Source of the DNA: Alphaproteobacteria bacterium
Lineage (GTDB): Bacteria; Pseudomonadota; Alphaproteobacteria; CALKHQ01
NCBI GenBank assembly: GCA_041396705.1
Contig: JAWKYB010000017.1
Location: forward strand, 53,865-117,864
DNA length: 64,000 nucleotides
Reading direction: 5' to 3'
Part shown: piece after piece, positions 31,231 to 45,897 of the stretch
Layout of the letters: each line of letters starts with the position of its first letter
Numbering within the stretch: position 1 is the stretch's first letter
Notes under the pieces: model-generated
What the model was told of the DNA's origin: nothing
What the model saw: the letters and a program-made list of their open reading frames with translations, nothing else
Database searches by the model: none
Made by a program: the position numbers and the translations under genes

Positions 31231-31941
31231 TCAGGCGATCACCAGGTCGGAGTGGGCCACGGCGAGGTGCTCGTGGATCAGCTTGGTCGAGCCGTCGGAA
31301 TCGCGGTCGCGGATGCGTTCGTAGATGGCGCGGTGCTGCTCGTTGTAGACCGCCATGCGGTGGGCGGTCAGCACCTTGTCCTTGGCGGCTCGCCACTGGG
31401 CATGGCCGCGGACGTGGTTGATCTGGCGATAGATCAGCACCATCAGCGGGTTGTGGGTCGCCTCCGCGATCAGCAGGTGGAAGCGCTGGTCCCAGTGGGT
31501 GAAGGTGTCCGGGTCCATCGACTGCTCAAGCTGCTCCACCGCCGAGGCGATCAGCGCGATGTCGCGCATGGTGGCGTTGCGCACCGCCAGCTGGATCATC
31601 GCCGGCTCCACGGTCTGGCGCACCTGCACCAGCTCCATCGGGCTGGTGATCTCGGCGATGTCGGCGTCGGCCGGCTGGCCGGAGAAGGTGACGAAGGTGC
31701 CGCTGCCGACGCGCCGCTCGATGAACCCGTCCTCGCACAGGTCCTCCAGCGCCTTGCGCACTGTGCCGCGCGAGCTGGCGAAGGTCTGCGCCATCTGGCG
31801 CTCGGCCGGCAGCCGCTCGCCGAAGGCGTAGACCCCGTCGATGATCGACTGCCTGAGCTTCAGCTTGATCCAGGCGGCGCCCTTGCGCTCGATCGACTGG
31901 CCTGCGTTGGTGTCGCGCACCACGGCAACGGTCTCGTTCAT
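31231..31941 (-). CDS. GntR/FadR-family transcriptional regulator
   Basis: The wHTH is LPAERQMAQTFASSRGTVRKALEDLCEDGFIERRVGSGTFV. A helical FCD-type C-domain follows. The gene is divergent from the amine operon. Confidence 0.88.
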   Translation of the reverse strand: MNETVAVVRDTNAGQSIERKGAAWIKLKLRQSIIDGVYAFGERLPAERQMAQTFASSRGTVRKALEDLCEDGFIERRVGSGTFVTFSGQPADADIAEITSPMELVQVRQTVEPAMIQLAVRNATMRDIALIASAVEQLEQSMDPDTFTHWDQRFHLLIAEATHNPLMVLIYRQINHVRGHAQWRAAKDKVLTAHRMAVYNEQHRAIYERIRDRDSDGSTKLIHEHLAVAHSDLVIA

Positions 31942-32001
31942 CGGGCGTCATCCCTGTCCCGGCCACCGGGCACACCGCGCGTCGCCGCGCCCGCCGGCAA
32001 T

Positions 32002-32041
32002 TGACCAAAGTGGACCGAATTATGAACCAATTTGGACCGAA
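32002..32041 (+). promoter_or_regulatory. array of four direct TGRACCRAA repeats
   Basis: The repeats are TGACCAAA (32002), TGGACCGAA (32011), TGAACCAA (32023) and TGGACCGAA (32033). Spacing is 9-12 bp. The array lies between the GntR gene and the flavoprotein gene. Confidence 0.4.
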
Positions 32042-32148
32042 ATCAAGCTTCGGTACAGTATTGGCTATGCAGCCGGTCCGAACGGTCATAGTGTTCGGCC
32101 TGCAAGGCGTCGCGGGCAGCGGGCTGCCCGGCCTCACGGAGAGCATCC

Positions 32149-33492
32149 ATGGCGCTGCCATCCCACTGCCGTTACGTGATCATCGGGGCCGGCATCCACG
32201 GCCTCAGCACGGCCATGCATCTGGCCAAGGGGCTGAAGGCGCGCGGCAGCGGCGGCGGGGCCGACATCGTGGTTCTGGACAAGGCCGGCATCGCGGCCGG
32301 CGCGTCCGGCATCGCCTGCGGCGTGATCCGCAACAACTACTACCAGCCGGCGATGCGCGAGCTGATGGCCCATTCGGTCTCGGTGTGGGAGAGCGATCCG
32401 GAGGCCTATCACTATCACCCGGTCGGCTACATGCAGATCAGCCCGGAGGTGATGCACGCGCAGGTCGCCACCATCTTCGAGCAGCAGCGCGCGATCGGCT
32501 ACGACAGCGACTTCATCGAGGGCGACAAGGCCTGCACCGCCTACATGAAGGAGATTCTCAGCGACTGGCGCGCCCAGGGCATCACCAGCGTGCTGCACGA
32601 GAAGAAGGGCGGCTACGCCAACAACACCGCCTCGATGTACGGCCTGGCCAAGAAGGCCGAGGACGAGGGCGTGCGCATCGTCACCGGCGTCAAGGTGGTC
32701 GGCTTCAAGACCGGCAACGGCAGCGGCGCGGTGAGCGCGGTCGAGACCGACAAGGGCAGCATCGCCTGCGACCACGTGGTGATCGGCGCCGGCCCCTGGG
32801 TGAAGAGCCTGTGGGACATGCTGGAGCTGCCGAAGACGGTCGACATCAAGGGCCCCGACGGCCAGATGCTGCGCGACGTGCCGATGTGGAAATACTGGAG
32901 CCTGCAGGAGGGCACGCTGGGCGTCGACCCGGAGCTGCAGAAGACCAACGACGGCCGCATGCCGCCGGTGATCCACGTCGACACCGACGCGCCGCTCTAT
33001 TCCGACGTCGACGGCTCGCTGATCACCGACAAGCTGTGGGGCATCTACTACAAGCCCGACTTCAACTTCGGCGGCGTGCAGGGCGGCGCGATGCCGTTCC
33101 CGGTCGAGCGCCCGGCCGACGAGGTCGCGGTCGACCCCTACGGTCCGGATTCGCCGGAATTCATCGTCGACGACCACTTCGCGCACATGTGGTGCTCGGC
33201 GCTGGCCCACTGCCAGGAACGCTTCTCCGGCCAGATCGGCCGTTACAAGAAGGAGCCGTCCGGCGGCATCGGCTGCTTCACGCCCGACAGCTTCCCGGTG
33301 TTCGACGTGTTCCGCGAGAACGTCCACGTCATCGCCGACTCCAACCACGGCTACAAGATGATCGGCGTCGGCCAGCTGGTCGCCGACGAGATCCTGGGTG
33401 GGCCGAGCCGGCTGCTGGAACCGTTCCGTTTCAGCCGCTTCGCCGAAGGCAAGCTGCACCCGACCTCGAACAGTCCGTTCCCCTGGAGCTGA
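32149..33492 (+). CDS. DAO-family FAD-dependent oxidoreductase (sarcosine-oxidase-beta / MgdA-like)
   Basis: The protein is 447 aa with the N-terminal dinucleotide fold YVIIGAGIHGLSTAMHLA. GGAGAG lies 7 nt upstream of the ATG. Confidence 0.8.
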   Translation: MALPSHCRYVIIGAGIHGLSTAMHLAKGLKARGSGGGADIVVLDKAGIAAGASGIACGVIRNNYYQPAMRELMAHSVSVWESDPEAYHYHPVGYMQISPEVMHAQVATIFEQQRAIGYDSDFIEGDKACTAYMKEILSDWRAQGITSVLHEKKGGYANNTASMYGLAKKAEDEGVRIVTGVKVVGFKTGNGSGAVSAVETDKGSIACDHVVIGAGPWVKSLWDMLELPKTVDIKGPDGQMLRDVPMWKYWSLQEGTLGVDPELQKTNDGRMPPVIHVDTDAPLYSDVDGSLITDKLWGIYYKPDFNFGGVQGGAMPFPVERPADEVAVDPYGPDSPEFIVDDHFAHMWCSALAHCQERFSGQIGRYKKEPSGGIGCFTPDSFPVFDVFRENVHVIADSNHGYKMIGVGQLVADEILGGPSRLLEPFRFSRFAEGKLHPTSNSPFPWS

Positions 33493-33539
33493 TCCGGGGC
33501 GCCGGCGCCGCTGCGCGGGGGCTTGCAGGCGCGCCATGA

Positions 33540-33590
33540 TTGGTTAGACTGAGGTCCATACTGGTCCAGAATTGGGCCACACAATGGTCC
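33540..33590 (+). promoter_or_regulatory. array of inverted-orientation repeats (TTGGTTA, GGTCCA, TGGTCCA, TGGGCCA, TGGTCC)
   Basis: These are reverse complements of the TGRACCRAA motif. They sit at 33540, 33553, 33562, 33573 and 33585, upstream of the GS-like gene. Confidence 0.35.
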
Positions 33591-33685
33591 GGTCGTTCGC
33601 CGCACCGCGACGGGCGAAACCGGTCCGACAAGGCAAGAGCCGGCGGGCGCCGCGAGCGGCCGGTGAGGAGAGCAGGGGGCAGATC

Positions 33686-35155
33686 ATGATGGACATCGAG
33701 GCATTCGTCCAAGCCGAAGGGCGCGACGAGCAGGTCAGGCAGGTGCGCGAGAAGATCGACGCGCTCGGCATCGAGTATCTCTACCTGCAGTTCGTCTCGG
33801 TGACCGGCCGCATCGTCGGCAAGGGCATCCCGTCGGACCACTGGGAGTCGGTGGCCGAGAAGGGCTTCCAGCTGGTCTATGGCGCGACGGTCAACCTGTT
33901 CACCAACCGGCGCGGCGAGTACATCGGCTTCGGTCCGCAGGACAAGGAGCTGGTCGGCATCCCCGAGCCGGAGACGTTCTGCCAGCTGCCCTGGGACAAG
34001 CGGGTGGCGCGGCTGTTCTGCACCCTGTTCCGCAACCGCGAGGAGCGGCAGAACCCCGGCGCCTACCTCAGCGCCGACTGCCGCGGCAACCTGAAGCGCA
34101 TCCACGACCAGTTCCAGCGCGACCACGGCGGCCTGCACATGCGTCACGGCACCGAGCCGGAGATGATGTGGCTGAAGAAGGACGAGAACGGCCGGCCCAA
34201 CGGCGGCGTGACCAAGCCGCACTGCTATCACATCAACCAGTTCGAGCAGCTGCGCCCGGTCTACATGAAGGTGATCGAGTACTCCAAGGCGATGGGGCTC
34301 GACATGATCCAGGGCGACCACGAGGACGCCCCCGGCCAGCTCGAGCTCAATTTCACCTTCGACGACCCGCTGCGCACCGCCGACCGGCTGACCACCTACC
34401 GCCAGGTCTGCGCCCAGGTCGCGCGCGAGTTCAACCTGATCGCCTGCTTCATGACCAAGCCGTTCATGGGCGTGTCGGCCTCGGGCTGCCACCACAACAT
34501 CTCGTTCTGGCGCGGCGGCGAGGACAAGCTGAACAGCCTGCGCAACGACCCGCTGCCGGGCATGGAAGAGGTGTTCATGTACCGCCGCGGCGGCGAGAAC
34601 ACCTTCATGCCCGACACCGACGACCCGCAGATGCCGGGCAAGGTCGGCCTGCAGGTGGTCGGCGGCATCGTCGCCCACCTGGCCGCGCTGACCGCGATCG
34701 GGTGCTCGACGGTGAACAGCTATCGCCGCCTGTGGGACACCGGCTTCTGGGCGCCGGTGTTCGCCGATTGGGGCTACCAGAACCGCACCACCGGCCTGCG
34801 CATTTCGGCGCCGGGCCGGTTCGAGTACCGCGCGGTCGATTCCATGGTGAACCCGCACCTGATGGCGGCGGCGATCATCAAGGCGGCCGACGACGGCATC
34901 CGCAACGACATCGACCCGGGCCCGCCGGAGGACCGCAACATCTACCAGGCGATGGAGGCTGGCAAGCAGGTGCGCCGCCTGCCGATGAGCCTGGGCGATT
35001 CGCTGGCCGCGCTGGCCAAGGACGACGTCATCAAGTCGGCGATGCCGGGCGACATGTACCGCATCTACGACGAGTACAAGCGCGACGAGTGGGAGCGCTT
35101 CATGCACACCACCACCGAATGGGACATGAACACCTATCTGGACTGCCTGCCCTGA
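33686..35155 (+). CDS. glutamine-synthetase-family ligase (GmaS/GlnT-like gamma-glutamylamide synthetase candidate)
   Basis: GS catalytic motifs are present: GTEPEMMW, DHEDAPGQLELNF, GSGCHHNISFW, NSYRRL and NRTTGLRI. Start is ATG 33686. Confidence 0.8.
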   Translation: MMDIEAFVQAEGRDEQVRQVREKIDALGIEYLYLQFVSVTGRIVGKGIPSDHWESVAEKGFQLVYGATVNLFTNRRGEYIGFGPQDKELVGIPEPETFCQLPWDKRVARLFCTLFRNREERQNPGAYLSADCRGNLKRIHDQFQRDHGGLHMRHGTEPEMMWLKKDENGRPNGGVTKPHCYHINQFEQLRPVYMKVIEYSKAMGLDMIQGDHEDAPGQLELNFTFDDPLRTADRLTTYRQVCAQVAREFNLIACFMTKPFMGVSASGCHHNISFWRGGEDKLNSLRNDPLPGMEEVFMYRRGGENTFMPDTDDPQMPGKVGLQVVGGIVAHLAALTAIGCSTVNSYRRLWDTGFWAPVFADWGYQNRTTGLRISAPGRFEYRAVDSMVNPHLMAAAIIKAADDGIRNDIDPGPPEDRNIYQAMEAGKQVRRLPMSLGDSLAALAKDDVIKSAMPGDMYRIYDEYKRDEWERFMHTTTEWDMNTYLDCLP

Positions 35156-35203
35156 CCGCCGGACCGTCGGCGGAGGGGGCGTTGGCCTGAGGAGTAAGAG
35201 AGC

Positions 35204-36142
35204 ATGTGCGGCATTGCCGGACTGATCCATCGCAATGGCAAGAGCGCCGACATCGGCGCCGAGATGACGTCGATGCTGCAGGCGCTGAAGCATCGCGGGC
35301 CGGACAGCACCGGTTTTGCGGTCTACGGCGTGCCGGACGACGACTATCTGGTCATGCGCTTCAAGGTCGCCGAGCAGGAGGACCTGGTGAAGGGCCTGGC
35401 CATCCACGAGGAGGTCAAGCGCCGCCGCAAGGAGGTCGACCAGCGGCTGGAGGCCCTCGGCGTGGCGATCGCCTCGACCGACGACGCCACCGAATACGCC
35501 TTCCGCTACGTGATGAAGTACGACGGCGACCTGAAGAAGCTGGCCCAGCATGTCGAAGACGTGCCGGGGGCGGAGATCCTGTCGCTCGGCCGCGGGCTGG
35601 AGCTGATCAAGGATCTGGGCGACGCCGGCACGGTGGCGGGCCAGTACGGGCTCGGCAAGTTCCGTGGCACCCACGGCATCGGCCACACCCGGATGGCGAC
35701 CGAATCGGCGGTCGACATCCGCTCCGCCCATCCCTACTGGGCCTACCCCTATTCCGACATCTCGGTGGTCCACAACGGCCAGCTGACCAACTACTGGACC
35801 AAGCGCCGCGAGCTGGAGCGCAAGGGCCAGCGCTTCATGTCCAACTGCGATTCCGAGCTGCTGGCGGTCTACACCGCCGACAAGCTGGAGAACGGCTACA
35901 GCCTGGAGGACTCGCTGCGCCAGTCGGTCGAGGAGCTGGATGGCGTCTTCACCTATCTGGTCGCGACCGCGGACTCGCTGGGCATGGCCAAGGACGTGAT
36001 GGCCGCGAAGCCGATGGTGCTCTACGAGAGCGACGATGCAGTGGCGCTGGCCTCGGAGGAGATCGCGATCCGCCGCATCTTTCCGCAGGAAATCGACACC
36101 TTCGACCCATATGACGGGGAGGTCCGGGTATGGCAGGCCTGA
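35204..36142 (+). CDS. class-II glutamine amidotransferase (MgsA/GlxB-like)
   Basis: The N-terminus MCGIAGLI provides a Cys2 nucleophile. GIGHTRMATES and HNGQLTNY are present. Confidence 0.85.
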   Translation: MCGIAGLIHRNGKSADIGAEMTSMLQALKHRGPDSTGFAVYGVPDDDYLVMRFKVAEQEDLVKGLAIHEEVKRRRKEVDQRLEALGVAIASTDDATEYAFRYVMKYDGDLKKLAQHVEDVPGAEILSLGRGLELIKDLGDAGTVAGQYGLGKFRGTHGIGHTRMATESAVDIRSAHPYWAYPYSDISVVHNGQLTNYWTKRRELERKGQRFMSNCDSELLAVYTADKLENGYSLEDSLRQSVEELDGVFTYLVATADSLGMAKDVMAAKPMVLYESDDAVALASEEIAIRRIFPQEIDTFDPYDGEVRVWQA

Positions 36143-36978
36143 AGAGCCAGGTTGAGCGCAGCTATGACATGGGGCTGCATACCGAGCAGCTCCGCGGTCG
36201 CACGCAGCAGCGCTTTTTCGAGGCCGACGAGGCCGAGAACCTCACCTATCCCGATGCGCCGGACGTCGACTTCAACAAGCGCGCCGAGTTCGACGCCAAG
36301 GACATGTCGACCGCGGACGTCAATAGGAAGATCCGCGCGCTGATGCTGGAGGGGCACGGCACCATCGTGGTCAAGAACCCGATGGCGCGGCATTCGCTCG
36401 GCGTCGGCATCCTCAACCGGCTCAACCTCTATTTCGAGGGCAGCCTGGGCTATTTCGGCGTCGGCCTGATCGACGGTCCGAACGTGCGCATCTCCGGCCG
36501 GGTCGGCTGGTCCTGCGCCGAGAACATGATGGCCGGCACCGTCGTCATCGAGAAGAACGCCGGCTCGCAGTTCGGCGCCGCCCTGCGCGGCGGCGACCTG
36601 GTCTGCAAGGGCCAGGTCGGCGCGCGCACCGGCATCGACATGAAGGGCGGCACCATCATCGTCGGCAAGTCGACCGGCGCCTTCTCCGGCTTCATGATGC
36701 AGCGCGGGCGCATGGTGATCTGCGGCGACGCGGGCGCCAATCTGGGCGATTCGATGTACGACGGCACCATCTTCGTCGGCGGCAAGATCGCCTCGCTCGG
36801 CGTCGACGCGGTGCCGGCAGAGCTGACCGACCTCGACCGGTCGTGGCTGACCCGCAAGCTGAAGCAGTACGACATGGTTCCGGCGCAGGGCGTCGACCAT
36901 TTCCAGAAGGTCGTCGCCGGCAAGCAGCTGTGGAACTACGACAACCTCGAGCCGGCCGAGAAGAAGCTCATTCTCTAG
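36130..36978 (+). CDS. GXGXG-motif protein (glutamate synthase alpha C-terminal-domain-like; MgsB/GlxC-like)
   Basis: Beta-helix repeats are visible: GYFGVGLIDGPNVRISG..AGTVVIEKNAG..GGDLVCKGQVG..GGTIIVGKSTG..GRMVICGDAG. The start overlaps the previous gene by 13 nt. Confidence 0.85.
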   Translation: MAGLKSQVERSYDMGLHTEQLRGRTQQRFFEADEAENLTYPDAPDVDFNKRAEFDAKDMSTADVNRKIRALMLEGHGTIVVKNPMARHSLGVGILNRLNLYFEGSLGYFGVGLIDGPNVRISGRVGWSCAENMMAGTVVIEKNAGSQFGAALRGGDLVCKGQVGARTGIDMKGGTIIVGKSTGAFSGFMMQRGRMVICGDAGANLGDSMYDGTIFVGGKIASLGVDAVPAELTDLDRSWLTRKLKQYDMVPAQGVDHFQKVVAGKQLWNYDNLEPAEKKLIL

Positions 36979-36994
36979 GCCGCCAAACCGGAAC

Positions 36995-37094
36995 GTCATT
37001 GCGAGGAGCGGAGCGACGCGGCAATCCAGGCCACCGCCCGATGCCCGCGCAGCCACCCTGGATCGCCACACCGCCTTCGGCGGCGCGCGATGAC
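36995..37094. repeat. REP/MITE-like imperfect inverted repeat inserted between two operon genes
   Basis: GTCATTGCGAGGAGCGGAGCGACGCGGCAATCCAGG is paired with CCTGGATCGCC...GCGCGATGAC. This is the classic alphaproteobacterial element that yields WIAASLRSSQ-type pseudo-peptides in ORF tracks. Confidence 0.65.
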
Positions 37095-37113
37095 GGAATG
37101 AGGAGTAGGAAGC

Positions 37114-38496
37114 ATGCCCGTTGAACAGCAGCCGGTGCCTGTCGAGCAGCCAGCGGCGAAGAAGACGAAGCGCAACGTCAATCTGCTTGGCCGCAGCTTC
37201 ATCTTCCCGCCGAACGTCATCGACGACATCCACATCAAGGCCGAGCTCGGCCGCTATCGCATGCGCGGCTTCAGCCTGTTCAAGAAGATCCCGAGCTGGG
37301 ACGACCTGACCTTCCTGCCGGGCACGCTGACCCGCTTCGTGATCGAGGGCTATCGCGAGAAGTGCGAGACCAAGACCGTGCTGGGCCCGCGCGCCAAGCG
37401 ACCGCTGGAGCTCGACATTCCGGTCTACATCACCGGCATGAGCTTCGGCGCGCTCAGCTACGAGGCCAAGACCGCGCTGGCCCGCGGCGCCACCATGGCC
37501 GGCACCGCCACCTGCTCCGGCGAGGGCGGCATGATCCCGGACGAGCGGCGCTATTCGTCGAAGTGGTACTACCAGTGCATCCAGTCGCGCTACGGCTTCA
37601 ACCCGCACCACCTGCGGCTGGCCGACGCGGTGGAGTTCTTCATCGGCCAGGGCTGCAAGGTCGGCCTCGGCGGCCACCTGATGGGCCAGAAGGTCACCGA
37701 CCAGGTCGCCGAGATGCGCTCGCTGCCCGCCGGCATCGACCAGCGCTCGCCGGCCCGCCATCCGGACTGGCTGGGCCCCGACGACTTGGCGCTGAAGATC
37801 GAGGAGATCCGCGAGGCGACCGACTGGCAGATCCCGATCCAGCTGAAGCTGGGCGCCGCCCGCGTCTATGACGACGTGCGCATGGCCGCCAAGTGCGACC
37901 CGGACATGATCTACATCGACGGCATGGAGGGCGGCACCGGCGCCGGCCCGCACCTGGCCACCGAGGAGACCGGTGTGCCGGGCATCGCCGCCATCCGCCA
38001 GGCGCGCCGCGCGCTCGACGACGTCGGCAAGTCCGGCGAGATCAGCCTGATCTACGCCGGCGGCATCCGCAACGGCGGCGACGTCGCCAAGGCGATCGCG
38101 CTCGGCGCCGACGCGGTGGCAATCGGCCACTCGGCCCTGATGGCGCTGAACTGCAACAAGGACATCCCAGAGGCCGACTACGAGAAGGAAGTCGGGGTCG
38201 AATCCGGCTATTGCTATCACTGTCACACCGGCCGCTGCCCGGTCGGCGTCGCCACGCAGGACCCGGCGCTGCGCGCGCGGCTCGACCCCGACGAGGCGGC
38301 GGAGCGCGTGTACAACTTCCTGCACACGCTGACCATCGAGTGCCAGATGCTGGCGCGGGCCTGCGGCAAGACCTACGTCCACAGCCTGGAGCCGGAGGAT
38401 CTGGCCGCGCTGACCATGGAGGCGTCGGCGATGGCCGGCGTGCCGCTGGCTGGCACCGACTACACCGTCGGCGTCGCCGACTATCACCACCTCTAG
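37114..38496 (+). CDS. FMN-binding glutamate-synthase-family protein (MgsC/GlxD-like)
   Basis: ITGMSFGALSYEAKTALARGA, DGMEGGTGAGP and GGIRNGGDVAKAIALGADAV are present, plus a Cys cluster CYHCHTGRCPVG. Confidence 0.88.
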   Translation: MPVEQQPVPVEQPAAKKTKRNVNLLGRSFIFPPNVIDDIHIKAELGRYRMRGFSLFKKIPSWDDLTFLPGTLTRFVIEGYREKCETKTVLGPRAKRPLELDIPVYITGMSFGALSYEAKTALARGATMAGTATCSGEGGMIPDERRYSSKWYYQCIQSRYGFNPHHLRLADAVEFFIGQGCKVGLGGHLMGQKVTDQVAEMRSLPAGIDQRSPARHPDWLGPDDLALKIEEIREATDWQIPIQLKLGAARVYDDVRMAAKCDPDMIYIDGMEGGTGAGPHLATEETGVPGIAAIRQARRALDDVGKSGEISLIYAGGIRNGGDVAKAIALGADAVAIGHSALMALNCNKDIPEADYEKEVGVESGYCYHCHTGRCPVGVATQDPALRARLDPDEAAERVYNFLHTLTIECQMLARACGKTYVHSLEPEDLAALTMEASAMAGVPLAGTDYTVGVADYHHL

Positions 38497-38592
38497 GCGC
38501 GTGCGCGCGGCAACGGCCGGCACGCTGACCGTCGTCGCGAGGCGCGCCGCCAGCCGGCGGCTCGCGACGGCGACGGATTAGGGAGACGACCA

Positions 38593-39009
38593 ATGGCAGG
38601 CAAGGGCGGTTACAAGGGCAGCGGCGAGGCCGGCGACGTCGATCGCTTCCTGAAGGGCGAGGGGCTGGATTCGACCCGCGAGCGCGAGATCGGCCAGCAC
38701 ATCGGCTATCGCTACGACGTCAACCTGCTGCCGGACTACGGCAAGATCACGCCGTTCCTGGCCAAGTACATGGAGACCATGGGCTGGGACGACCTCAACT
38801 GGCTCGAGGACGTGCACATGGGCTACGAGGACGGCCGCCCGGCGGTGTTCGACCGCAACATCAACGGCTGGGTGACCATTCCGGAGTCGGTCGACCTGCC
38901 CGACAATCAGCAGGACCGCGACATGCTGGCGCGCGAGATGCTGATCAAGTTCCAGATGTCGCCGAACCACCCGATGGTCACGCTGAACAAGGCCTATCGG
39001 AAATTCTGA
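38593..39009 (+). CDS. hypothetical 138-aa protein, last gene of the amine operon
   Basis: AGGGAG lies 7 nt before the ATG. The protein is acidic and Trp/Tyr-rich (MAGKGGYKGSGEAGDVDRFLKG...WDDLNWLEDVHMGYEDGRP...). It has no TM segment, no Cys, and no family I recognise. Confidence 0.6.
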   Translation: MAGKGGYKGSGEAGDVDRFLKGEGLDSTREREIGQHIGYRYDVNLLPDYGKITPFLAKYMETMGWDDLNWLEDVHMGYEDGRPAVFDRNINGWVTIPESVDLPDNQQDRDMLAREMLIKFQMSPNHPMVTLNKAYRKF

Positions 39010-39030: not shown

Positions 39031-39609
39031 TCAGAACAGGGCGACGCCCGCCGCCTCGAGGCAGACCAGGGCGCCCAGCGCCCCGAACAGCGCGGCGGCG
39101 GCCAGCCTGATCGTGCGCAGCGGCAGCCGGTCGGCGGCGAAGCCGCCCAGCGCGACCACCGGCGCGTTGGCCGCCATCATGCCGAGCGTTGTGCCGACCG
39201 TGACCATCGCGATGTCCTGGAAGCGGGCGGCCAGCGCCATGGTGGCGACCTGGGTCTTGTCGCCGATCTCGACCAGAAAGAACGCGACCAGGGTGGTCAG
39301 GAAGGCGCCGTAGCGGTCGGCCGGGCCTGCCGAGTCGCCGTCCAGCCGGTCGGGTTTCAGGGTCCACAGGCCCATCAGGACGAAACCGGCACCGAGCCCC
39401 CACTGCAACGCCTCGCTCTGCAGCCAGTCGCCGACGGCGGTGCCAAGCAGGGCAGCCAGCGCATGGTTGGCGACGGTGGCGATCAGGATGCCGGCGAGGA
39501 TCGGCAGCGGCGCGCGGAAGCGCGCGCACAGCAGCAGCGCCAGCAACTGGGTCTTGTCGCCGATCTCGGCCAGGGCGACGACGCCGGTCGAGACGAGCAG
39601 GCTTTCCAT
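39031..39609 (-). CDS. UPF0016 / GDT1 (TMEM165) family cation (Mn2+/Ca2+) transporter
   Basis: It has two E-x-G-D-K-T motifs (LAEIGDKTQ and LVEIGDKTQ) and about 6 TM helices. Start is ATG 39609. Confidence 0.85.
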   Translation of the reverse strand: MESLLVSTGVVALAEIGDKTQLLALLLCARFRAPLPILAGILIATVANHALAALLGTAVGDWLQSEALQWGLGAGFVLMGLWTLKPDRLDGDSAGPADRYGAFLTTLVAFFLVEIGDKTQVATMALAARFQDIAMVTVGTTLGMMAANAPVVALGGFAADRLPLRTIRLAAAALFGALGALVCLEAAGVALF

Positions 39610-39671
39610 CGGCACATTCCCGGGTCGGCGGCAGGCCAAGGCCCGGCGGCCGCCCGACCCCGCGGGGCGCC

Positions 39672-39792
39672 GGACCCATGGTCTCGCCAAGCGCGGTGCC
39701 GGACGCGCCACGGACCGGAACCGTAGCGGTCCGGGCCAAGCCTGTTGACGCGCCCCTTCCTGCGGCGGAAGCGGCTACTCCCCAAGGGATGC
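39672..39792 (-). promoter_or_regulatory. yybP-ykoY-like Mn2+ riboswitch
   Basis: The minus-strand RNA reads CCCUUGGGGAGUAGCCGC...GCGUCAACAGG...CUUGGCGAGACCAUGGG. The conserved GGGGAGUAG (39783-39775) and GC-AGACC (39687-39679) are present. P1 (CCCUUGG/CCAUGGG) pairs at 6 of 7 positions. The element lies ~65 nt upstream of the UPF0016 gene. Confidence 0.6.
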
Positions 39793-39848
39793 GTGATCTT
39801 ACGGGCCCGCGCCGCCCGCTGCAACCGCGGCACGGGCGCGTCTGCGCC

Positions 39849-40901
39849 TCACAGCTCGATGACGCAGTCCTCGGCCGGCTCGGCCGGCGGCTGGTCCCGC
39901 AGGTCGCGGAACTGCACCTGGGTGACGTGCTCGATGCCGCGCAGCATGTCGGACATCACGAAGGCGGCGATTCGCGGCGGGTGGTGCTTGCCCTTCAGCG
40001 CGAGCCAGCTGTTCAGCTTCACGGTCAGCGCGCAGACCGAGCCGCCGATGTCCTTCTGGTAGTGGCGGATGGTGTCTTCCATGCGCTGGAAGCTGGCGCT
40101 GGAGATGTCGGACCACATGTGCTGGGTCTCGACCCGGAAGATGTCGATGACCTGCGCGATGCCGAAGCGGGCGTTGGTCAGCCGGCGCTCGATCAGTTGG
40201 CAGGCGTGGGCGATCTCGCGGCTGCCGCGATAGCCGGGGGCTTCCGGCAGGGTGCGCAGCACGCCGAGGAAATCGGCGAGCGTCGGCTCGAGCTGGCTGA
40301 GGCAAAAGGCGTAGTAGGACAGCGACAGATAGACGTCGCCATAGCGCGCCAGGAACAGCGGGATGTCGAACAGCCCGATCTCCAGGCGCTCGGCCAGCCG
40401 CATCAGGTTGGTCTTCGCCGTTGCCACGTCCGGGCTCTGGAACAGCTTCAGGATGTCGGCGAAGCTTTTCTCGCCGTCGTCGGCATGGCCGTAGACCTGC
40501 GCCATCAGCGGCCTGATGAAGGCGGCCAGATGCGACGAGACCTGGCGCTCCATCTCCGGCGACAGCCGCAGGTGCTGGACGGTGTCGACGTCGAGGCCGA
40601 GGTCGCGCAGCGCGACGCGCACGCTGTAGACGTCGAAGCTGGCCAGCTCGCTCAGCTTCAGGATCAGCTCGTAGTCGTCGTGCCGGCCGTCGCCGAAGTC
40701 GAAATGCTGGCGCAGCTGCCGCGGCGGAATGTGCCCGCGGCCGGAGAACGGACCGGAGAACAGCTCGACCACGCTTTCCAGGTGCATGTTCTTGGTCAGC
40801 AGCGCGTCGCTCAGACTTCGCGTCTTGATCGGCATGGTCCGCAACGGCAGCACATGCACGGAATCCTTGGCCTCGCGGAACGCGGTCGGGTCGAGCGACA
40901 C
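39849..40901 (-). CDS. hypothetical 350-aa, apparently all-helical cytoplasmic protein
   Basis: The start is GTG, with GGAGA 7 nt upstream. Third-position GC bias fits this frame. I recognised no domain. Confidence 0.6.
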   Translation of the reverse strand: MSLDPTAFREAKDSVHVLPLRTMPIKTRSLSDALLTKNMHLESVVELFSGPFSGRGHIPPRQLRQHFDFGDGRHDDYELILKLSELASFDVYSVRVALRDLGLDVDTVQHLRLSPEMERQVSSHLAAFIRPLMAQVYGHADDGEKSFADILKLFQSPDVATAKTNLMRLAERLEIGLFDIPLFLARYGDVYLSLSYYAFCLSQLEPTLADFLGVLRTLPEAPGYRGSREIAHACQLIERRLTNARFGIAQVIDIFRVETQHMWSDISSASFQRMEDTIRHYQKDIGGSVCALTVKLNSWLALKGKHHPPRIAAFVMSDMLRGIEHVTQVQFRDLRDQPPAEPAEDCVIEL

Positions 40902-41254
40902 GGCAATGTCTCCATGGCTGAGGAACAGGAGAAAGGCCAGCTACACGCAGGAGTGCCTATTGTCCATTCGGAGATTGGGAATTAGTTAATTACGCACTGC
41001 GTCATGTAGTTGGGGCTCGGGCGTCGGGTCGGACGGAACCCGGGCGTTGCCTTCGTCTGGCGGCGTAAGCGCACCGCGGCTGCGCAGGCCCGGCACGACA
41101 CGGGTTTGCCAGGTGGGGCGGTGCACACAAGGGGCATTGCGCACGGCCTTCGCGGGCCGAACCGGGTTCAGCCGCGAAACGCACAACGATGCGCCGCATA
41201 ATTGTGCAGACGAGGCCGAATCCGGCCAAGTCGACAGCAGCGACGATTGACGGT

Positions 41255-41298
41255 TTGGTTCATGAACCGGTCTGCGCGGCCGTCGATTTCTGGTTCGA
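41255..41298. promoter_or_regulatory. palindrome GGTTCATGAACC plus a TGGTTCGA half-site in the Amt-paralogue upstream region
   Basis: The perfect 12-bp palindrome is at 41257-41268. TTGGTTCA (41255) is the reverse complement of the TGAACCAA seen at 32023. Confidence 0.35.
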
Positions 41299-41509
41299 TT
41301 CTTGCCAGCGGTCAGGTCGATCTTGCTTTTGGCGTTGCCGTAGCCGACGGATTTTGCAAACGTTTACGATCCGCGCGCGGCTTTCCTGCAATGCCGCAAG
41401 TCCGAACAAGGGACAGATAACATCGAGCCGGCGCGGCGGCCATGACGGAGGCTCCGCGGGCTGCGCAGCGTTGCGCCGGCCAGGCGGGCGAGAGGGGGAG
41501 AAGGACTGG

Positions 41510-42886
41510 ATGACTGACCCGAATAGCGCGCTATCGGTCATCTTCACCGAGTTCTACTACTGGGTGACCGTGGCGCTGATGTTCCTCATCCATGTGGGCT
41601 TCTGCATGTATGAGGTCGGTGCATCGCGCAACAAGAACAAGATGCACACGCTGATGAAGAACACGATGCTGATCCCGCTGGTCACCGTCACGTTCTATCT
41701 GTTCGGCTGGTGGATCTATTTCGCGTTTCCCAACGGCATTCCCGGCATCACCGGCGACCTGCCCGAGGCGGCGGCGACCTATCTGCCATGGTCGGAAAAC
41801 ATGGGCACGCACATGCAGGACCGCATCACCGGCGTGTTCTGGGCGGCGTTCCTGCTGTTCTCTTGGACGGCGGCCTCGATCGTCTCCGGCTCGGTGATCG
41901 AGCGCATCCGCTCCGGCGCCTTCTGGATCATGGCGGTGCTGATCGGCTCGGTCACCTGGATCATCGACGCGGCCTGGGGCTGGCACCCGGACGGCTGGAT
42001 GGTCACCGAGCTCGGCTATCACGACGCCTATGCCTCCGGCGTCATCCACGCCATCGCCGGCGGCGCCGCGTTGGGCGCGCTGATCGTGCTCGGCCCGCGT
42101 GTCGGCCGGTTCAAGCCGGACGGCACCGCGCGGGTGATCCCGCCGAACAATCCATGGCTGGTCACGGTCGGCATCTTCCTGATCTACACCGGCTTCTGGG
42201 GCTTCTATGTCGCCTGCAACGTGCCGATCATCGACAGCGACTTCATCGGCAGCACCGCAGAGGGCGGCGCCACCTTCTATACGGCGACCACGATCTATCT
42301 GACGCCCACCACCCTGTCGGCAATTACGTTCAACTTCCTGATGTCGCTGTCGGGCGGCCTGATGGTCGGCTATCTGGTGTCGAAGGGCGATGCCTTCTGG
42401 ACCTATTCGCTGGGTCTGGCCGGCATCATCACGGCGTCGGCCGGCAACGACCTCTACCATCCGATCGAATCGATGCTGGTCGGCGGCGTCGGCGCCTGGA
42501 TAGCCTACAAGCTGCACTACTGGGCCGAGCGCAAGTTCAAGTTCGACGACGCGGTCGGTGCGGTGGCGGTGCACGGCTATGCCGGTTTCGCCGGGCTGGT
42601 CATCGCCGGCTTCCTGCTGTGGGGCCATCCGGCGACGGCCGGCTACCACGGCGAGGCGACGCCGATCACGCCGTGGGGCAACACCATCGGCGCGATCATC
42701 ATGTTCTTCGTGCTGGGCTTCCTGCCGATGTTCATCCTGGCCAAGATCCTCAACGCCTTCGGGCTGTTGCGCGTCCCGCGCGACGTTGAGCTGGCGGGCC
42801 TCGATTTCGCGGCCAATCACACGGAAGCGCTGGACCAGGCCGAGATCGAAGAGGCGACGATGGCCGCCGTCCGGGCCAAGAACTGA
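41510..42886 (+). CDS. divergent Amt/MEP/Rh-family ammonium (methylammonium?) transporter
   Basis: The protein is 458 aa with about 11 TM helices. The twin histidines are conserved (SGVIHAIAGG and GAVAVHGYAGFAG), but the DFAGG motif is replaced by HDAYAS. GGGGGAG lies upstream of ATG 41510. Confidence 0.8.
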   Translation: MTDPNSALSVIFTEFYYWVTVALMFLIHVGFCMYEVGASRNKNKMHTLMKNTMLIPLVTVTFYLFGWWIYFAFPNGIPGITGDLPEAAATYLPWSENMGTHMQDRITGVFWAAFLLFSWTAASIVSGSVIERIRSGAFWIMAVLIGSVTWIIDAAWGWHPDGWMVTELGYHDAYASGVIHAIAGGAALGALIVLGPRVGRFKPDGTARVIPPNNPWLVTVGIFLIYTGFWGFYVACNVPIIDSDFIGSTAEGGATFYTATTIYLTPTTLSAITFNFLMSLSGGLMVGYLVSKGDAFWTYSLGLAGIITASAGNDLYHPIESMLVGGVGAWIAYKLHYWAERKFKFDDAVGAVAVHGYAGFAGLVIAGFLLWGHPATAGYHGEATPITPWGNTIGAIIMFFVLGFLPMFILAKILNAFGLLRVPRDVELAGLDFAANHTEALDQAEIEEATMAAVRAKN

Positions 42887-42900
42887 GGGAGGGCCGAACC

Positions 42901-43134
42901 ATGTCCACCACACCCGTCGAGACCTGGCAGAACGTGAACGGCGAGGAGATCGCTGCGATCTATCCCTTCGTCGGCATCGAAGTCTGGCTGGTCATCGCCT
43001 GCGTGATCTTCTGGGTGCTGTTCCACATCTGGCAGATCAAGCAGGAGAACAGGGAGATCCGCGAGGATCACGAGCTGCTCAAGAAGAACGGCAACCTGGA
43101 ACGCGTCGTGAAGGGCGACAACCTGTTGCTCTGA
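42901..43134 (+). CDS. 77-aa single-pass membrane protein coupled to the Amt paralogue
   Basis: GAGGGAGG lies 8 nt before the ATG, and the gene starts 14 nt after the Amt stop. It has one TM helix (IEVWLVIACVIFWVLFHIW) and a charged tail. It is AT-richer than its surroundings. Confidence 0.6.
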   Translation: MSTTPVETWQNVNGEEIAAIYPFVGIEVWLVIACVIFWVLFHIWQIKQENREIREDHELLKKNGNLERVVKGDNLLL

Positions 43135-43162: not shown

Positions 43163-43190
43163 GGGGCGCCGCATCGCGGCGCCCCTTTTT
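43163..43190 (+). terminator. rho-independent terminator
   Basis: A 10-bp stem GGGGCGCCGC (43163-72) / GCGGCGCCCC (43176-85) is followed by TTTTT (43186-90). Confidence 0.7.
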
Positions 43191-43202: not shown

Positions 43203-44501
43203 TCAGGCGGAGACGCGCAGGCCCTGCGGCGCCTGTGGCATCTCGTAGCGGGCGAAACGGCCGCCGATCATCACCGCACTCAGGCGGTCCGGATCCTGCA
43301 GGATGCGGATGTCGTCCAGCGGGTCGCCGTCGACGACCAGCAGGTCGGCATGGGCGCCCGGCGCGAGCCGGCCGATCCGCTCCGGCTCGCCCATCAGCTC
43401 GCCGCCCAGTCGGGTGGCGGCGACGAGCGCCTCCATCGGCGTGAAGCCGAGCAGGCCGACGAAGTGCTCCAGGTCGCGGGCGTTGGTACCGATCGGGTTG
43501 GTGATGCCGGCGCCGTAGTCGCCGCCGGGCAGGATGCGCACGCCGCGCTTGCGCAGGTCGCTCATGCAGTCGATCAACGTTGCAAGCTCCTCCTGCAGCA
43601 GCGCGAGCTTGCGCGGCGGCATCGGCAGGCCGAATTCCCGGTGCCGGTTGATCTGCGACCATGGGAAGCCGATGGTCGGCGCGACGAACACCCGGTCCTT
43701 CGCCGCCTCCAGCATGTCGCGCGCCTCCGCGTCGGCGAACACGGCGTGGTAGATCACGTCGACGCCGTGGCGGATGCACATCTTGACGCCGTCGGAACTG
43801 GTGCAGTGCGCCGCCACCATCATGTTGCGCGGCTTGGCCACCGCGACCAGCGCCGCAAGCTCGGCGTCGGTGATCACGGTGACCGTGCTGTAGGCGTGCA
43901 TACGGCCATAGTCGCGGTCGCCGGAGACGTTGACCTTCAGCGTGTCGACGCCGTCGCGCGCCGCCAGCCGCCCGGCCTCGGTGAAGGCGTCCGCGCCGTC
44001 GGCGATCACGGTGAAGGCGATCGCGCGCGGCAGCGTCAGGTAGTTGGTATTGGCGTCGCCCAGGTTGCCGGAGGGCGTGATCTCCTGGCTGCAGGCGCGG
44101 ATGCGCGGGCCGACGAAATGGCCGGCCTCGATCGCGTCGCGCACGGCGACGTCGAGCCGCGGCTTGGCCGCCGCGGCGCTGAACAGGCTGGTGAAGCCGC
44201 GCTGCAGCAGCAATTGCGCGTTCTTCAGCGAGACCAGCGCCTGGTCCTCGACCGGGGTCATGATCGTGCCCTCGAACGAGGTGATGTTGTCGAACGAGAT
44301 GTGGCAGTGCGCCTCGACCATGCCCGGCATCACGGTGCGGCCGCCGCAGTCGACCCGCGCCAGCCGGTCGCCGCCGATCGCGGCGACGTTGGCCGGGCGC
44401 ACCTGGGCGATCGTGCCGTCCTCGACCAGGATGTCGCCGTCGAAGGGCGCGCCGCCGGAGCCGTCGATGATGCGCGCGTTGGTCAGCAGCAGATCGTTCA
44501 T
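43203..44501 (-). CDS. amidohydrolase-superfamily metallohydrolase
   Basis: The N-terminus ARIIDGSGG...VMPGMVEAHCHISF carries the HxH metal site. Start is ATG 44501, with GGGGAGGAG upstream. Confidence 0.85.
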   Translation of the reverse strand: MNDLLLTNARIIDGSGGAPFDGDILVEDGTIAQVRPANVAAIGGDRLARVDCGGRTVMPGMVEAHCHISFDNITSFEGTIMTPVEDQALVSLKNAQLLLQRGFTSLFSAAAAKPRLDVAVRDAIEAGHFVGPRIRACSQEITPSGNLGDANTNYLTLPRAIAFTVIADGADAFTEAGRLAARDGVDTLKVNVSGDRDYGRMHAYSTVTVITDAELAALVAVAKPRNMMVAAHCTSSDGVKMCIRHGVDVIYHAVFADAEARDMLEAAKDRVFVAPTIGFPWSQINRHREFGLPMPPRKLALLQEELATLIDCMSDLRKRGVRILPGGDYGAGITNPIGTNARDLEHFVGLLGFTPMEALVAATRLGGELMGEPERIGRLAPGAHADLLVVDGDPLDDIRILQDPDRLSAVMIGGRFARYEMPQAPQGLRVSA

Positions 44502-44703
44502 GGTCTCCTCCCCTGGCATGTCCATCGTGCTGGCGAACGACGCCGTTCGGTCAAGTAAGACACCCGGCGACCGCCGCCGCAAGGCAGGCGGCCGCGCCGT
44601 CTTTGCCGCACCCGGCGGACCGCCGTTGCGCACGCCGGCCGCGGCCGGCTATCGAGAAGACGCAGAACCGGCCGCCGAGGGCCGGACAGGGAGTTAACCG
44701 CGC

Positions 44704-45897
44704 ATGTCGATCGACCCCGCCACGCTGAAGGCCAACTGGAACTACCCGACGACGATCCGCTTCGGTCCCGGCCGGATCGCGGAGATCGCCGCCGCCTGCC
44801 GCTACGCCGGCATCGCGCGGCCGCAGATCGTCACCGACCCCGGGCTCGCCGGCCTGCCGATGATCGCCGACGCGCAGGCGCGGCTGGCCGAGGCCGGCAT
44901 GCCGGCCGCGGTGTTCGCCGACGTGCAGGGCAACCCGGTCGGCGCCAATGTCGAGGCCGGGGTGGCGGCGTTCAAGGCCGGCGGCCATGACGGTGTGATC
45001 GCCTGGGGCGGCGGCAGCGCGCTGGACGCCGGCAAGGCGGTGGCGCTGATGGCCGGCCAGACGCGGTCGATGTGGGATTTCGAGGATGTCGGCGACAACT
45101 GGAAGCGGGTCGACGCGGACCGGGTGGCACCGGTGGTGGCGGTGCCGACCACGGCCGGCACCGGCTCCGAGACCGGCCGCGCCTCGGTGATCACCAATGT
45201 CGGGGCCGACCGCAAGATCGTCGTCTTCCACCCGGCGATGATGCCGAAATGCGTGGTCGCCGACCCCGAACTGACGGTCGGGCTGCCGCCGCACCTGACC
45301 GCGGCCACCGGCATGGACGCGTTCGCCCACTGCCTGGAGGCCTATTGCGCGCCGGGCTTCCACCCGATGGCCGACGGCATCGCGGTCGAAGGCGTGCGGC
45401 TGGTCAAGGACTGGCTGCCCGCGGCGGTCCGCGACGGCAAGGACATGGCCGCGCGCGCCCACATGATGGTCGCGGCCTCGATGGGCTCGACCGCGTTCCA
45501 GAAGGGCCTGGGCGCGATCCATTCGCTGTCCCACCCCTGCGGCTCGCTGTTCCACACCCACCACGGCCTGACCAATGCCGTGGTCATGCCCTATGTGCTG
45601 GCGTACAACCGGCCGGTCATCGAGCAGCGGATCGGGCGGCTGGCCCGCTATCTGGGTCTCGACGGCAGCTTCGACGGTTTCATGCGCTGGGTGCTCGACC
45701 TGCGCGCCGAGATCGCGATTCCGAACACGCTGGCCGCGCTCAAGGTCGACCCGGCCGCGGTCGACCGGATGGCGGAGTTGGCGGCGATCGACCCGTGCGC
45801 CGGTGGCAACCCGCGCCATGTCGGCGTCGCCGAGCACATCCACCTCTATCACGCCGCGCTCAACGGCGACCTGAAGAGCGCCGGCTGGCACGCCTGA
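44704..45897 (+). CDS. iron-containing (group III) alcohol dehydrogenase
   Basis: GGGSALDAGKAVA, VPTTAGTGSE and the His cluster HSLSHPCGSLFHTHHG are present. Confidence 0.9.
   Translation: MSIDPATLKANWNYPTTIRFGPGRIAEIAAACRYAGIARPQIVTDPGLAGLPMIADAQARLAEAGMPAAVFADVQGNPVGANVEAGVAAFKAGGHDGVIAWGGGSALDAGKAVALMAGQTRSMWDFEDVGDNWKRVDADRVAPVVAVPTTAGTGSETGRASVITNVGADRKIVVFHPAMMPKCVVADPELTVGLPPHLTAATGMDAFAHCLEAYCAPGFHPMADGIAVEGVRLVKDWLPAAVRDGKDMAARAHMMVAASMGSTAFQKGLGAIHSLSHPCGSLFHTHHGLTNAVVMPYVLAYNRPVIEQRIGRLARYLGLDGSFDGFMRWVLDLRAEIAIPNTLAALKVDPAAVDRMAELAAIDPCAGGNPRHVGVAEHIHLYHAALNGDLKSAGWHA

Follow-up and report, generated by a model that had tools for sequence, protein, structure and literature searches.

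This article concerns a 64-kb stretch of alphaproteobacterial DNA (about 70% G+C; contig JAWKYB010000017.1), hereafter the window, and within it a divergent GntR/FCD regulator followed by six co-oriented genes (positions 31231-39009) that form a real and strongly conserved sister version of the N-methylglutamate pathway, which captures small methylated amines on glutamate. In order, the six genes encode a flavin adenine dinucleotide (FAD) flavoprotein of the DAO family (DAO447), a ligase of the glutamine synthetase (GS) family (GS2), a class-II amidotransferase (GAT2), a GXGXG subunit (GXG2), a glutamate synthase-like flavin mononucleotide (FMN) subunit (FMN2) and a protein of 138 residues (U138). 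By third-position GC every gene has a single clear coding frame, and Pfam and NCBIfam confirm the domains, which bears out the placing of the six genes and the divergent regulator in the original prediction, made from the sequence alone; the relatives of GS2 are 489-493 residues long, as against 489 when GS2 is counted from the ATG at 33686, and Rfam found no riboswitch in the operon.

The conservation of this module is considerable. When one genome per species was scanned, DAO447 was present in at least 597 species genomes and U138 in at least 584, and protein searches returned at least 8000 close homologues for each. Of the fully flanked loci, by which I mean the 46 anchored on U138 with at least 9 kb on both sides, 45 retain the complete core GS2-GAT2-GXG2-FMN2-U138 (the other sets comprised 80 DAO-anchored, 80 U138-anchored, 80 Tmm-anchored and 101 related loci; single loci are cited by their L numbers). 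Across Alpha-, Beta- and Gammaproteobacteria the identities are unusually high, with 84-92% for FMN2, 71-85% for U138, 66-85% for GS2 and 64-78% for DAO447; the module also turns up in a few bins placed in other phyla, cultured carriers include Virgifigura deserti and Pseudaestuariivita atlantica, thousands of metagenome clusters contain it, and a search for a plasmid-borne annotated example gave no U138 match in PLSDB. Dozens of genomes repeat this gene order, with proteins 64-92% identical, and the arrangement cannot be attributed to chance. The original prediction of a separate module akin to the gamma-glutamylmethylamide / N-methylglutamate pathway, with an appended 138-residue gene that looked conserved, is borne out, and both the module and the gene are conserved. 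The gene order, which had been offered as a distinguishing feature, is not diagnostic, since the canonical operon of Ruegeria pomeroyi is likewise described as gmaS-mgs (PMC13390433). It is probable, if not certain, that the module is undescribed: full-text searches in a library without most subscription journals found no description of it, of its Fe-S feature or of U138, and nothing relevant on a second gmaS/mgs system.

GS2 scores 266 bits against Gln-synt_C and 295 bits against the GlnT/GmaS family of NCBIfam (TIGR03105), short of the cut-off of 469.6, and it also falls short of the cut-off for gamma-glutamylputrescine synthetase (PuuA family, NF045547; 215.7 against 650). With 26-30% identity to the canonical GmaS of neighbouring loci and an insertion of about 20 residues (282-302), it represents a clade separate from the characterised GmaS/GlnT enzymes. 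The GmaS criteria are a GS fold that lacks the ammonium-binding Asp50' and the catalytic flap Glu, the latter being Trp300 in RhGmaS (PMC7948447), and they were applied by aligning GS2 to solved GmaS and GS structures. At the Asp50' site, aligned with Asp53' of the Bacillus-type GS, GS2 has Tyr65; Trp355 aligns with the flap Glu and RhGmaS Trp300; and a GmaS-specific Asp takes the position of a GS His. Among the alignable residues (Lys30' falls outside the alignment), Tyr147, Gln175, Asp177, Glu179, Glu186, Asn188 and Arg312 of RhGmaS are matched by Y181, Q209, D211, E213, E220, N222 and R372 of GS2, and both the Tyr/Trp substitutions and the RhGmaS pocket and catalytic residues are kept in 60 of 60 orthologues. 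Since these GmaS-type residues are conserved, GS2 is predicted to be a gamma-glutamyl-amine ligase with a GmaS-like pocket and not a glutamine synthetase, in agreement with the original prediction, although the pocket, as read from its residues, offers no hint that would separate methylamine from dimethylamine.

The next three genes encode three separate subunits (a Cys2 class-II amidotransferase, a GXGXG protein and an FMN protein of the Glu_synthase type) together with the ligase, which is the architecture of MgsABC, and MgsABC is also the closest relative of the trio. When canonical systems and a third type of system, described below, are pooled, GAT2 is 33-45% identical to the amidotransferases of neighbouring mgs-type systems and GXG2 35-41% identical to their GXGXG subunits or domains; for FMN2 and canonical MgsC, tblastn and global alignment give about 50-55%. 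The original prediction was right about the presence of a synthase-like trio and overlooked what I consider its most informative difference from the canonical system, namely the predicted Fe-S ligand cysteines of the FMN subunit. Cys347, Cys370 and Cys375 of FMN2 align with the cysteines of the C-x5-C-x4-C-P motif in the alpha subunit of Azospirillum brasilense glutamate synthase (GltS; 1EA0/2VDC). Compared with GltS, the cluster loop of FMN2 carries a 17-residue insertion and an extra cysteine, Cys367. The motif cysteines of GltS are the 3Fe-4S ligands Cys1102/1108/1113. At the four positions, all 89 variants of the module read CCCC, all seven canonical MgsC proteins (those beside a canonical GmaS) DYWD, and all five fusion proteins of the third type again CCCC.

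This pattern matters for the predicted flow of electrons. In the canonical N-methylglutamate synthase, methylamine takes the place of glutamate's amino group by way of an internal FMN redox cycle, a mechanism that fits the loss of the cluster ligands from canonical MgsC. FMN2 keeps the GltS cluster cysteines, which suggests that it probably receives electrons from a partner, as glutamate synthase does; and the third system, in which the same cysteines occur together with a GltD-like reductase, argues that the cysteine-bearing synthases of this family come with an external redox partner and probably all work in the manner of glutamate synthase. With the ferredoxin- or NADPH-dependent glutamate synthases (GltB/GltS alpha) the module shares the amidotransferase, FMN and GXGXG parts, the cluster cysteine positions and an implied chemistry, the reductive amination of 2-oxoglutarate with a tunnelled amide nitrogen. 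It differs from the single GltS alpha chain of about 1500 residues in being split into three polypeptides, in having no central domain and in the absence of a GltD from the window; and as the trio is partnered with a ligase that is not a GS, glutamine is unlikely to be the donor.

DAO447 is the only redox protein associated with the module and, as had been expected of a single SoxB/MgdA-like flavoprotein, the only candidate oxidase in the window, where no SoxD-, SoxA- or SoxG-like open reading frames (ORFs) accompany it as they would in a four-subunit MgdABCD. It scores 69.8 against the soxB model TIGR01373 (cut-off 529) and is 25% identical to MgdA-like proteins, although IMG sometimes labels it "methylglutamate dehydrogenase subunit A". 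By sequence and fold the beta subunits of heterotetrameric sarcosine oxidase and L-proline dehydrogenase are nearest, with L-amino-acid deaminase, monomeric sarcosine oxidase and dimethylglycine dehydrogenase as further relatives; the AlphaFold2 (AF2) model is poor (mean predicted local distance difference test, pLDDT, 54.5) and the Foldseek placement therefore holds at the level of the family only. DAO447 is thus a distant relative of SoxB/MgdA, and with N-methyl amino-acid oxidases as its nearest relatives of solved structure I propose that it is an N-alkylglutamate oxidase or dehydrogenase and a possible electron partner of the synthase. Contrary to what had been supposed, the flavoprotein has no fixed place in the operon: 16 of the 46 fully flanked loci have it immediately before the ligase and 22 have it somewhere within 10 kb, and in two complete chromosomes it is found 0.5-0.7 Mb from the module (L015 versus L081 in OZ252006.1, and L036 versus L222 in CP070646.1).

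U138 is invariably the last gene of the core, and its family is an orphan found only with the module. The protein has no cysteines and no sequence match in Pfam, NCBIfam or PDB; the 120 homologues listed are 76-89% identical (83-89% for the best), and all those with a name are called "hypothetical". A profile search through 1.84 billion representative proteins returned only the U138 family and fragments of it, with no fusions and no remote relatives, and the AF2 model, which has a confident core at residues 50-138, gave nothing better than E = 1 in Foldseek. The ideas of a SoxD/SoxG-like protein and of a remnant of the GltS central domain were rejected, there being no similarity in sequence, profile or fold. 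U138 may therefore be an additional, module-specific subunit of the synthase or a factor for its assembly.

The regulator is divergent from the operon in 44 of the 46 fully flanked loci, and the intergenic region between the two holds an operator-like near-palindrome, GAACCAATTTGGACC. The 8-mers AACCAATT/AAATTGGT recur in this intergenic region in 58 of the 101 related loci, the recurrent near-palindrome being of the AACCAATT(T)GG type, and the candidate GntR site is designated AACCAATTTGG; the regulator may well bind there. Since both occur near tmm and a gene of unknown function, it was suspected that the regulator is TmoR, the dimethylamine sensor of R. pomeroyi, and this was rejected on identity: identity is about 31% between the GntR proteins of module loci and those adjoining tmm in loci that lack the module, as against 62-68% within each group, so the former are not of the TmoR type. 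That the module itself might lie inside the trimethylamine cluster of R. pomeroyi (SPO1554-1561) is unlikely, SPO1557 being fhs-1; the other locus tags of this range are not mentioned in the papers searched.

The neighbours of the module in other genomes narrow the substrate. Within 10 kb, 34 of the 46 fully flanked loci (74%) have at least one known methylated-amine gene, counted as Tdm in 17, an mgdA-like gene in 10, Tmm in 8, canonical mgs in 7 and TmoX in 6. About 25 of the 80 Tmm-anchored loci, mostly from Rhodobacterales, carry the module co-oriented with tmm-tmoXWV-tdm, and there a single strand reads GntR, DAO447 (not always present), GS2, GAT2, GXG2, FMN2, U138, a CN-hydrolase, a 200-residue gene, in some cases DUF1330, and then tmm, tmoXWV and tdm. 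In many genomes canonical mgsABC-gmaS, with its helix-turn-helix (HTH)-cupin regulator, and mgdABCD, with SoxB-, SoxD-, SoxA- and SoxG-like products, also lie within 10 kb, and in Virgifigura deserti (L133) the two complete systems adjoin each other. Since the canonical genes so often stand beside it, the module is an additional paralogous system and not a replacement, and the idea of one flavoprotein in the place of mgdABCD proves too simple. Copies of an Amt-family channel, 59-76% identical, adjoin the module in many loci (16 of the 46, and also the window); together with s75, a small and apparently single-helix membrane protein, the channel occurs in 15 loci, and the same pair is found directly upstream of canonical mgsABC-gmaS in L233 and L234. 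Taken as a whole, this context points to a methylated amine that is imported as a small cation. Methylated-amine genes in 74% of the fully flanked loci and the recurrent Amt make the substrate probably methylamine and possibly dimethylamine, so that the identity of the amine, which had been left entirely open, can be narrowed to the methylated amines.

Set against the N-methylglutamate pathway (GmaS, MgsABC and MgdABCD, as in Methyloversatilis, Methylocella and R. pomeroyi), the module has the same kinds of parts, a GmaS-type ligase, a synthase trio and a SoxB-family flavoprotein, and both occur in methylated-amine islands with the Amt and s75 transporter pair. Its proteins are all separate paralogues, however, at 26-55% identity for the ligase and trio and 25% for the flavoprotein; FMN2 has four cysteines at the GltS Fe-S site where canonical MgsC does not; one flavoprotein, often unlinked, stands in contrast to the folate-coupled four-subunit MgdABCD; there is the extra orphan U138; and the regulator is a GntR, not an HTH-cupin or AraC protein. 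Judged by these comparisons, the chemical strategy would be that of the N-methylglutamate pathway with a separate lineage for every protein, and the module is a separate paralogue of gmaS-mgsABC, not a rearranged copy. The third system mentioned above was met in L085, L089, L101, L216 and L222 (positions 425-3288 in L085, 14565-19977 in L089 and about 2.3-9 kb in L216/L222) and comprises an amidotransferase, a GXGXG::FMN fusion bearing the four cysteines and an 840-residue GltD-like protein with Fer4_20 and Pyr_redox_2 domains and a degenerate FMN-like C-terminal half, under an HTH-cupin regulator; a GmaS-like ligase follows in L216 and L222. With the module it shares a GltS-like synthase bearing four cysteines, the methylated-amine islands and the link to a GmaS-type ligase; it differs in having its own NAD(P)H-type GltD-like reductase and the HTH-cupin regulator, in lacking U138 and DAO447, and in an FMN domain only 36-41% identical. 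It looks like an NAD(P)H-driven variant of N-methylglutamate synthase.

I favor the view, with a probability of about 0.5, that the locus encodes a GntR-controlled, ATP-dependent system for the capture of small methylated amines, methylamine being the likeliest, that is paralogous to the N-methylglutamate pathway. The amine would enter through the nearby Amt-type channel and be joined by GS2 to the gamma-carboxyl group of glutamate; GAT2 would split the amide and, together with the GXGXG subunit, hand the amine to the FMN subunit, where it would be condensed with 2-oxoglutarate and reduced to N-alkylglutamate with electrons that probably come from a partner, as in glutamate synthase. DAO447 would then convert N-alkylglutamate to glutamate and an aldehyde (formaldehyde), and may itself be the electron partner of FMN2, with U138 as a module-specific extra subunit. 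Methylamine is the parsimonious choice because the pocket matches GmaS and the transporter is common to the canonical pathway. Several observations weigh on the other side. The Fe-S cluster of FMN2 is predicted from the cysteine pattern and not proven; DAO447 shows no obvious Fe-S or docking motif and, being unlinked in about half of the loci, is not an obligate operon partner; the use of methylamine would duplicate the canonical pathway that adjoins the module in at least 13 of the 80 U138-anchored loci (7 of the 46 fully flanked); and the 64-kb window holds neither Tmm, Tdm and canonical pathway genes nor the 200-residue neighbour.

The duplication is where dimethylamine becomes a serious alternative, if one to which I would give clearly less weight. 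GS2 would make gamma-glutamyl-dimethylamide, the synthase would turn this into N,N-dimethylglutamate by way of an iminium, and DAO447 would demethylate it to N-methylglutamate and then glutamate, so that DmmDABC is bypassed; the coexistence with a complete canonical methylamine pathway in L133 would thereby be explained. The trimethylamine islands hold the genes for all the other steps beside the module (Tmm, TmoXWV, Tdm and canonical GmaS with either mgsABC or a P450-like gene), dimethylamine is the product of Tdm, which outnumbers every other catabolic neighbour and directly follows U138 on the same strand in L127 and L129, and there is no dmm-like cluster within 10 kb of the module, a distance (+/-10 kb) to which this statement is confined. 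Moreover, many marine bacteria that bear Tdm and GmaS are missing dmmDABC (PMC5520151), and RhGmaS accepts dimethylamine weakly (PMC7948447). However, the amine-pocket residues are identical to those of GmaS and give no sign that a second methyl group would fit, the known substrates of Amt channels are ammonium and methylammonium, the regulator does not belong to the dimethylamine-sensing TmoR type, and the search found no literature on the metabolism of gamma-glutamyl-dimethylamide or N,N-dimethylglutamate.

Other small primary amines outside C1 metabolism, such as ethylamine, ethanolamine or isopropylamine, which is the open form in which the substrate was originally predicted, are improbable. 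It is true that 12 of the 46 fully flanked loci, like the window, have no known methylated-amine gene in reach, that GmaS-type ligases are promiscuous (PMC7948447) and that a lone oxidase without a folate-binding partner would suit the release of a non-C1 aldehyde, but strong linkage to Tmm, Tdm, TmoX and canonical genes recurs from class to class, the transporter is of the Amt type and not an amino-alcohol or amine permease, and the methylamine pocket of GmaS is fully conserved. A self-contained alternative to the GS-GOGAT route (GOGAT, glutamine:2-oxoglutarate aminotransferase, i.e., glutamate synthase) for ammonium, made of a split Fe-S glutamate synthase with its own glutamine synthetase and Amt, could appeal to the FMN2 cysteines at the GltS cluster site, to the adjacent channel and to a PDB sequence search in which the ligase scores equally against archaeal GS and GmaS; it is very hard to reconcile with a ligase that has Tyr for Asp50', Trp for the flap Glu and the GmaS-specific Asp for the GS His in all 60 orthologues, with GntR/FCD regulators, which are typical of catabolic operons, and with a context of catabolic methylated-amine islands. 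Equally implausible is a logic like that of PuuABCD (putrescine) or IpuC-F (isopropylamine), which, like the module, begin with an ATP-dependent GS-like ligase and possess a DAO-family oxidase, and in which gamma-glutamylation would be protective, DAO447 or another oxidase acting on the intermediate before a hydrolase frees the product: a PuuD-like Peptidase_C26 (11 loci) and a CN_hydrolase (20 loci) do recur beside the module in Tmm-anchored loci, but both are absent from the window and many loci, the operon has no aldehyde dehydrogenase or class-I amidotransferase, DAO-family enzymes oxidise amines and not the amide nitrogen, the ligase stays far below the PuuA-family cut-off, and the ever-present GltS-like trio, which Puu and Ipu systems lack, would be left without a role.

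Table 1. Features of the module and of the adjoining Amt-s75 unit, in window coordinates.
Feature	Position	Strand	Evidence or remark
GntR+FCD (FadR-type) regulator	31231..31941	-	Pfam GntR and FCD domains; divergent from operon
Operator-like near-palindrome GAACCAATTTGGACC	32024..32038	.	GntR-operon intergenic region
DAO447, DAO-family FAD flavoprotein, 447 aa	32149..33492	+	Pfam DAO, 125 bits
GS2, GS-family ligase, 489 aa	33686..35155	+	ATG at 33686; ORF opens at 33572 (TTG)
GAT2, class-II (N-terminal nucleophile, Ntn) amidotransferase, 312 aa	35204..36142	+	GATase_6/7; N-terminus MCGIAG (Cys2)
GXG2, GXGXG beta-helix subunit, 282 aa	36130..36978	+	PF01493; 13-nt overlap with GAT2
FMN2, Glu_synthase/FMN subunit, 460 aa	37114..38496	+	PF01645, 310 bits
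Predicted Fe-S site codons of FMN2, Cys347...Cys367-x2-Cys370-x4-Cys375	38152..38238	+	Alignment to GltS alpha
U138, orphan 138-aa protein	38593..39009	+	No Pfam/NCBIfam match
Divergent Amt-family channel	41189..42886	+	PF00909, 179 bits
s75, small, apparently single-helix membrane protein after Amt	42901..43125	+	tblastn 44% to 75-aa ORF in L081
Intrinsic-terminator-like hairpin closing the Amt-s75 unit	43163..43185	+	10 G-C pairs, then TTTTT

Around the module in the window, the Amt gene (Table 1) probably starts downstream of its listed start, because the Pfam domain begins at residue 126 and relatives have 457-478 residues; about 120 N-terminal residues of the listed ORF are missing in them. 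The channel keeps the twin His and the equivalent of Asp160, the stretch GWFGFNGG near the ammonium recruitment site reads TGFWGFYVA, and the best PDB match, at only 84.7 bits, is the Kuenenia Amt5 sensor. Between U138 and Amt lie a GDT1/TerC-like cation transporter gene (39031-39795, minus strand) and a 350-residue ORF without a Pfam match (39849-40901, minus strand; third-position GC 0.93). Just upstream of the transporter gene the Mn2+ (yybP-ykoY) riboswitch model matches weakly (39689-39795; 25.2 bits against a gathering threshold of 45; E = 0.0013), and since the listed start at 39711 overlaps this match, translation probably begins at an internal MESLL near 39612. Beyond the hairpin, an amidohydrolase (43203-44633) and an iron-containing alcohol dehydrogenase (44704-45897) had been thought to process the released product; neither of them, nor the 350-residue ORF, has a counterpart beside the module in the 80 DAO-anchored loci, and all three were dropped as pathway members. 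Directly upstream of the regulator an ECF (extracytoplasmic function)-type sigma factor with DUF6596 and a tetratricopeptide repeat (TPR) tail (29699-31012, plus strand) is likewise not conserved with the module.

The islands of the relatives contain further genes that deserve a mention in their own right. A protein of about 200 residues without a Pfam match lies between the module and tmm (L131 11074-11679, L149 11266-11856, L164 11443-12066) and is present in 42 U138-anchored loci; L164, the closest relative, has it between DAO447 and the ligase. It probably corresponds to the "gene of unknown function" between tmoR and tmm (PMC13390433). A CN_hydrolase, that is, an amidase of the nitrilase superfamily, directly follows U138 in 20 Tmm-anchored loci (e.g., L149 10418-11269), and a PuuD-like class-I amidotransferase/Peptidase_C26 lies upstream of the regulator in 11, with L201 351-1070 among the positions of these hydrolases; both are candidate hydrolases of gamma-glutamylamides or 2-oxoglutaramate. 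In Tmm-anchored islands of the Rhodobacterales type, Amt and a canonical, RhGmaS-like gmaS are followed by a 393-residue P450-like protein with no mgsABC after it (L201 17992-21357; also L203, L178, L165, L167, L179 and L196), and a P450 acting on gamma-glutamylmethylamide would give glutamine and formaldehyde, which may be another methylamine route. Lastly, an Fe(II)/2-oxoglutarate dioxygenase of the PhyH family (about 280 residues) and an EamA transporter occur beside the module or tmm in about 10 loci, with PhyH ORFs near the module in L081, L084, L091, L109, L158 and L163; dioxygenases of this type are able to N-demethylate and are candidates for a further step.

What, then, would such a system mean? 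In the sea and in soils, methylated amines make up a major pool of nitrogen, and they are precursors of climate-active aerosols. Surveys count the degraders of these amines by markers such as gmaS, and in automated annotation some DAO447 proteins already carry the name of canonical mgdA. The module is a second widespread system that differs in its predicted redox wiring and in its oxidase and adds an orphan subunit, and if this is true, models of who uses methylamine or dimethylamine, and how, need revision. Carried further than I would want to insist upon, the Fe-S synthase may fix the amine nitrogen on 2-oxoglutarate with electrons from the oxidation of its own product's methyl group by the SoxB-like flavoprotein, a "methylamine GOGAT" in which U138 may be the subunit that couples or assembles the complex, and which in a second form may accept dimethylamine and so supply the missing step in Tdm- and GmaS-bearing bacteria that lack DmmDABC. 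As a whole, with the electron loop closed, this picture is doubtful; were it true, amine nitrogen would pass into glutamate without free ammonia and without NAD(P)H. For the unexplained dimethylamine "bottleneck" (PMC5520151) the module offers a concrete candidate, and it provides a natural test of how the glutamate synthase scaffold switches between internal and external electron supply.

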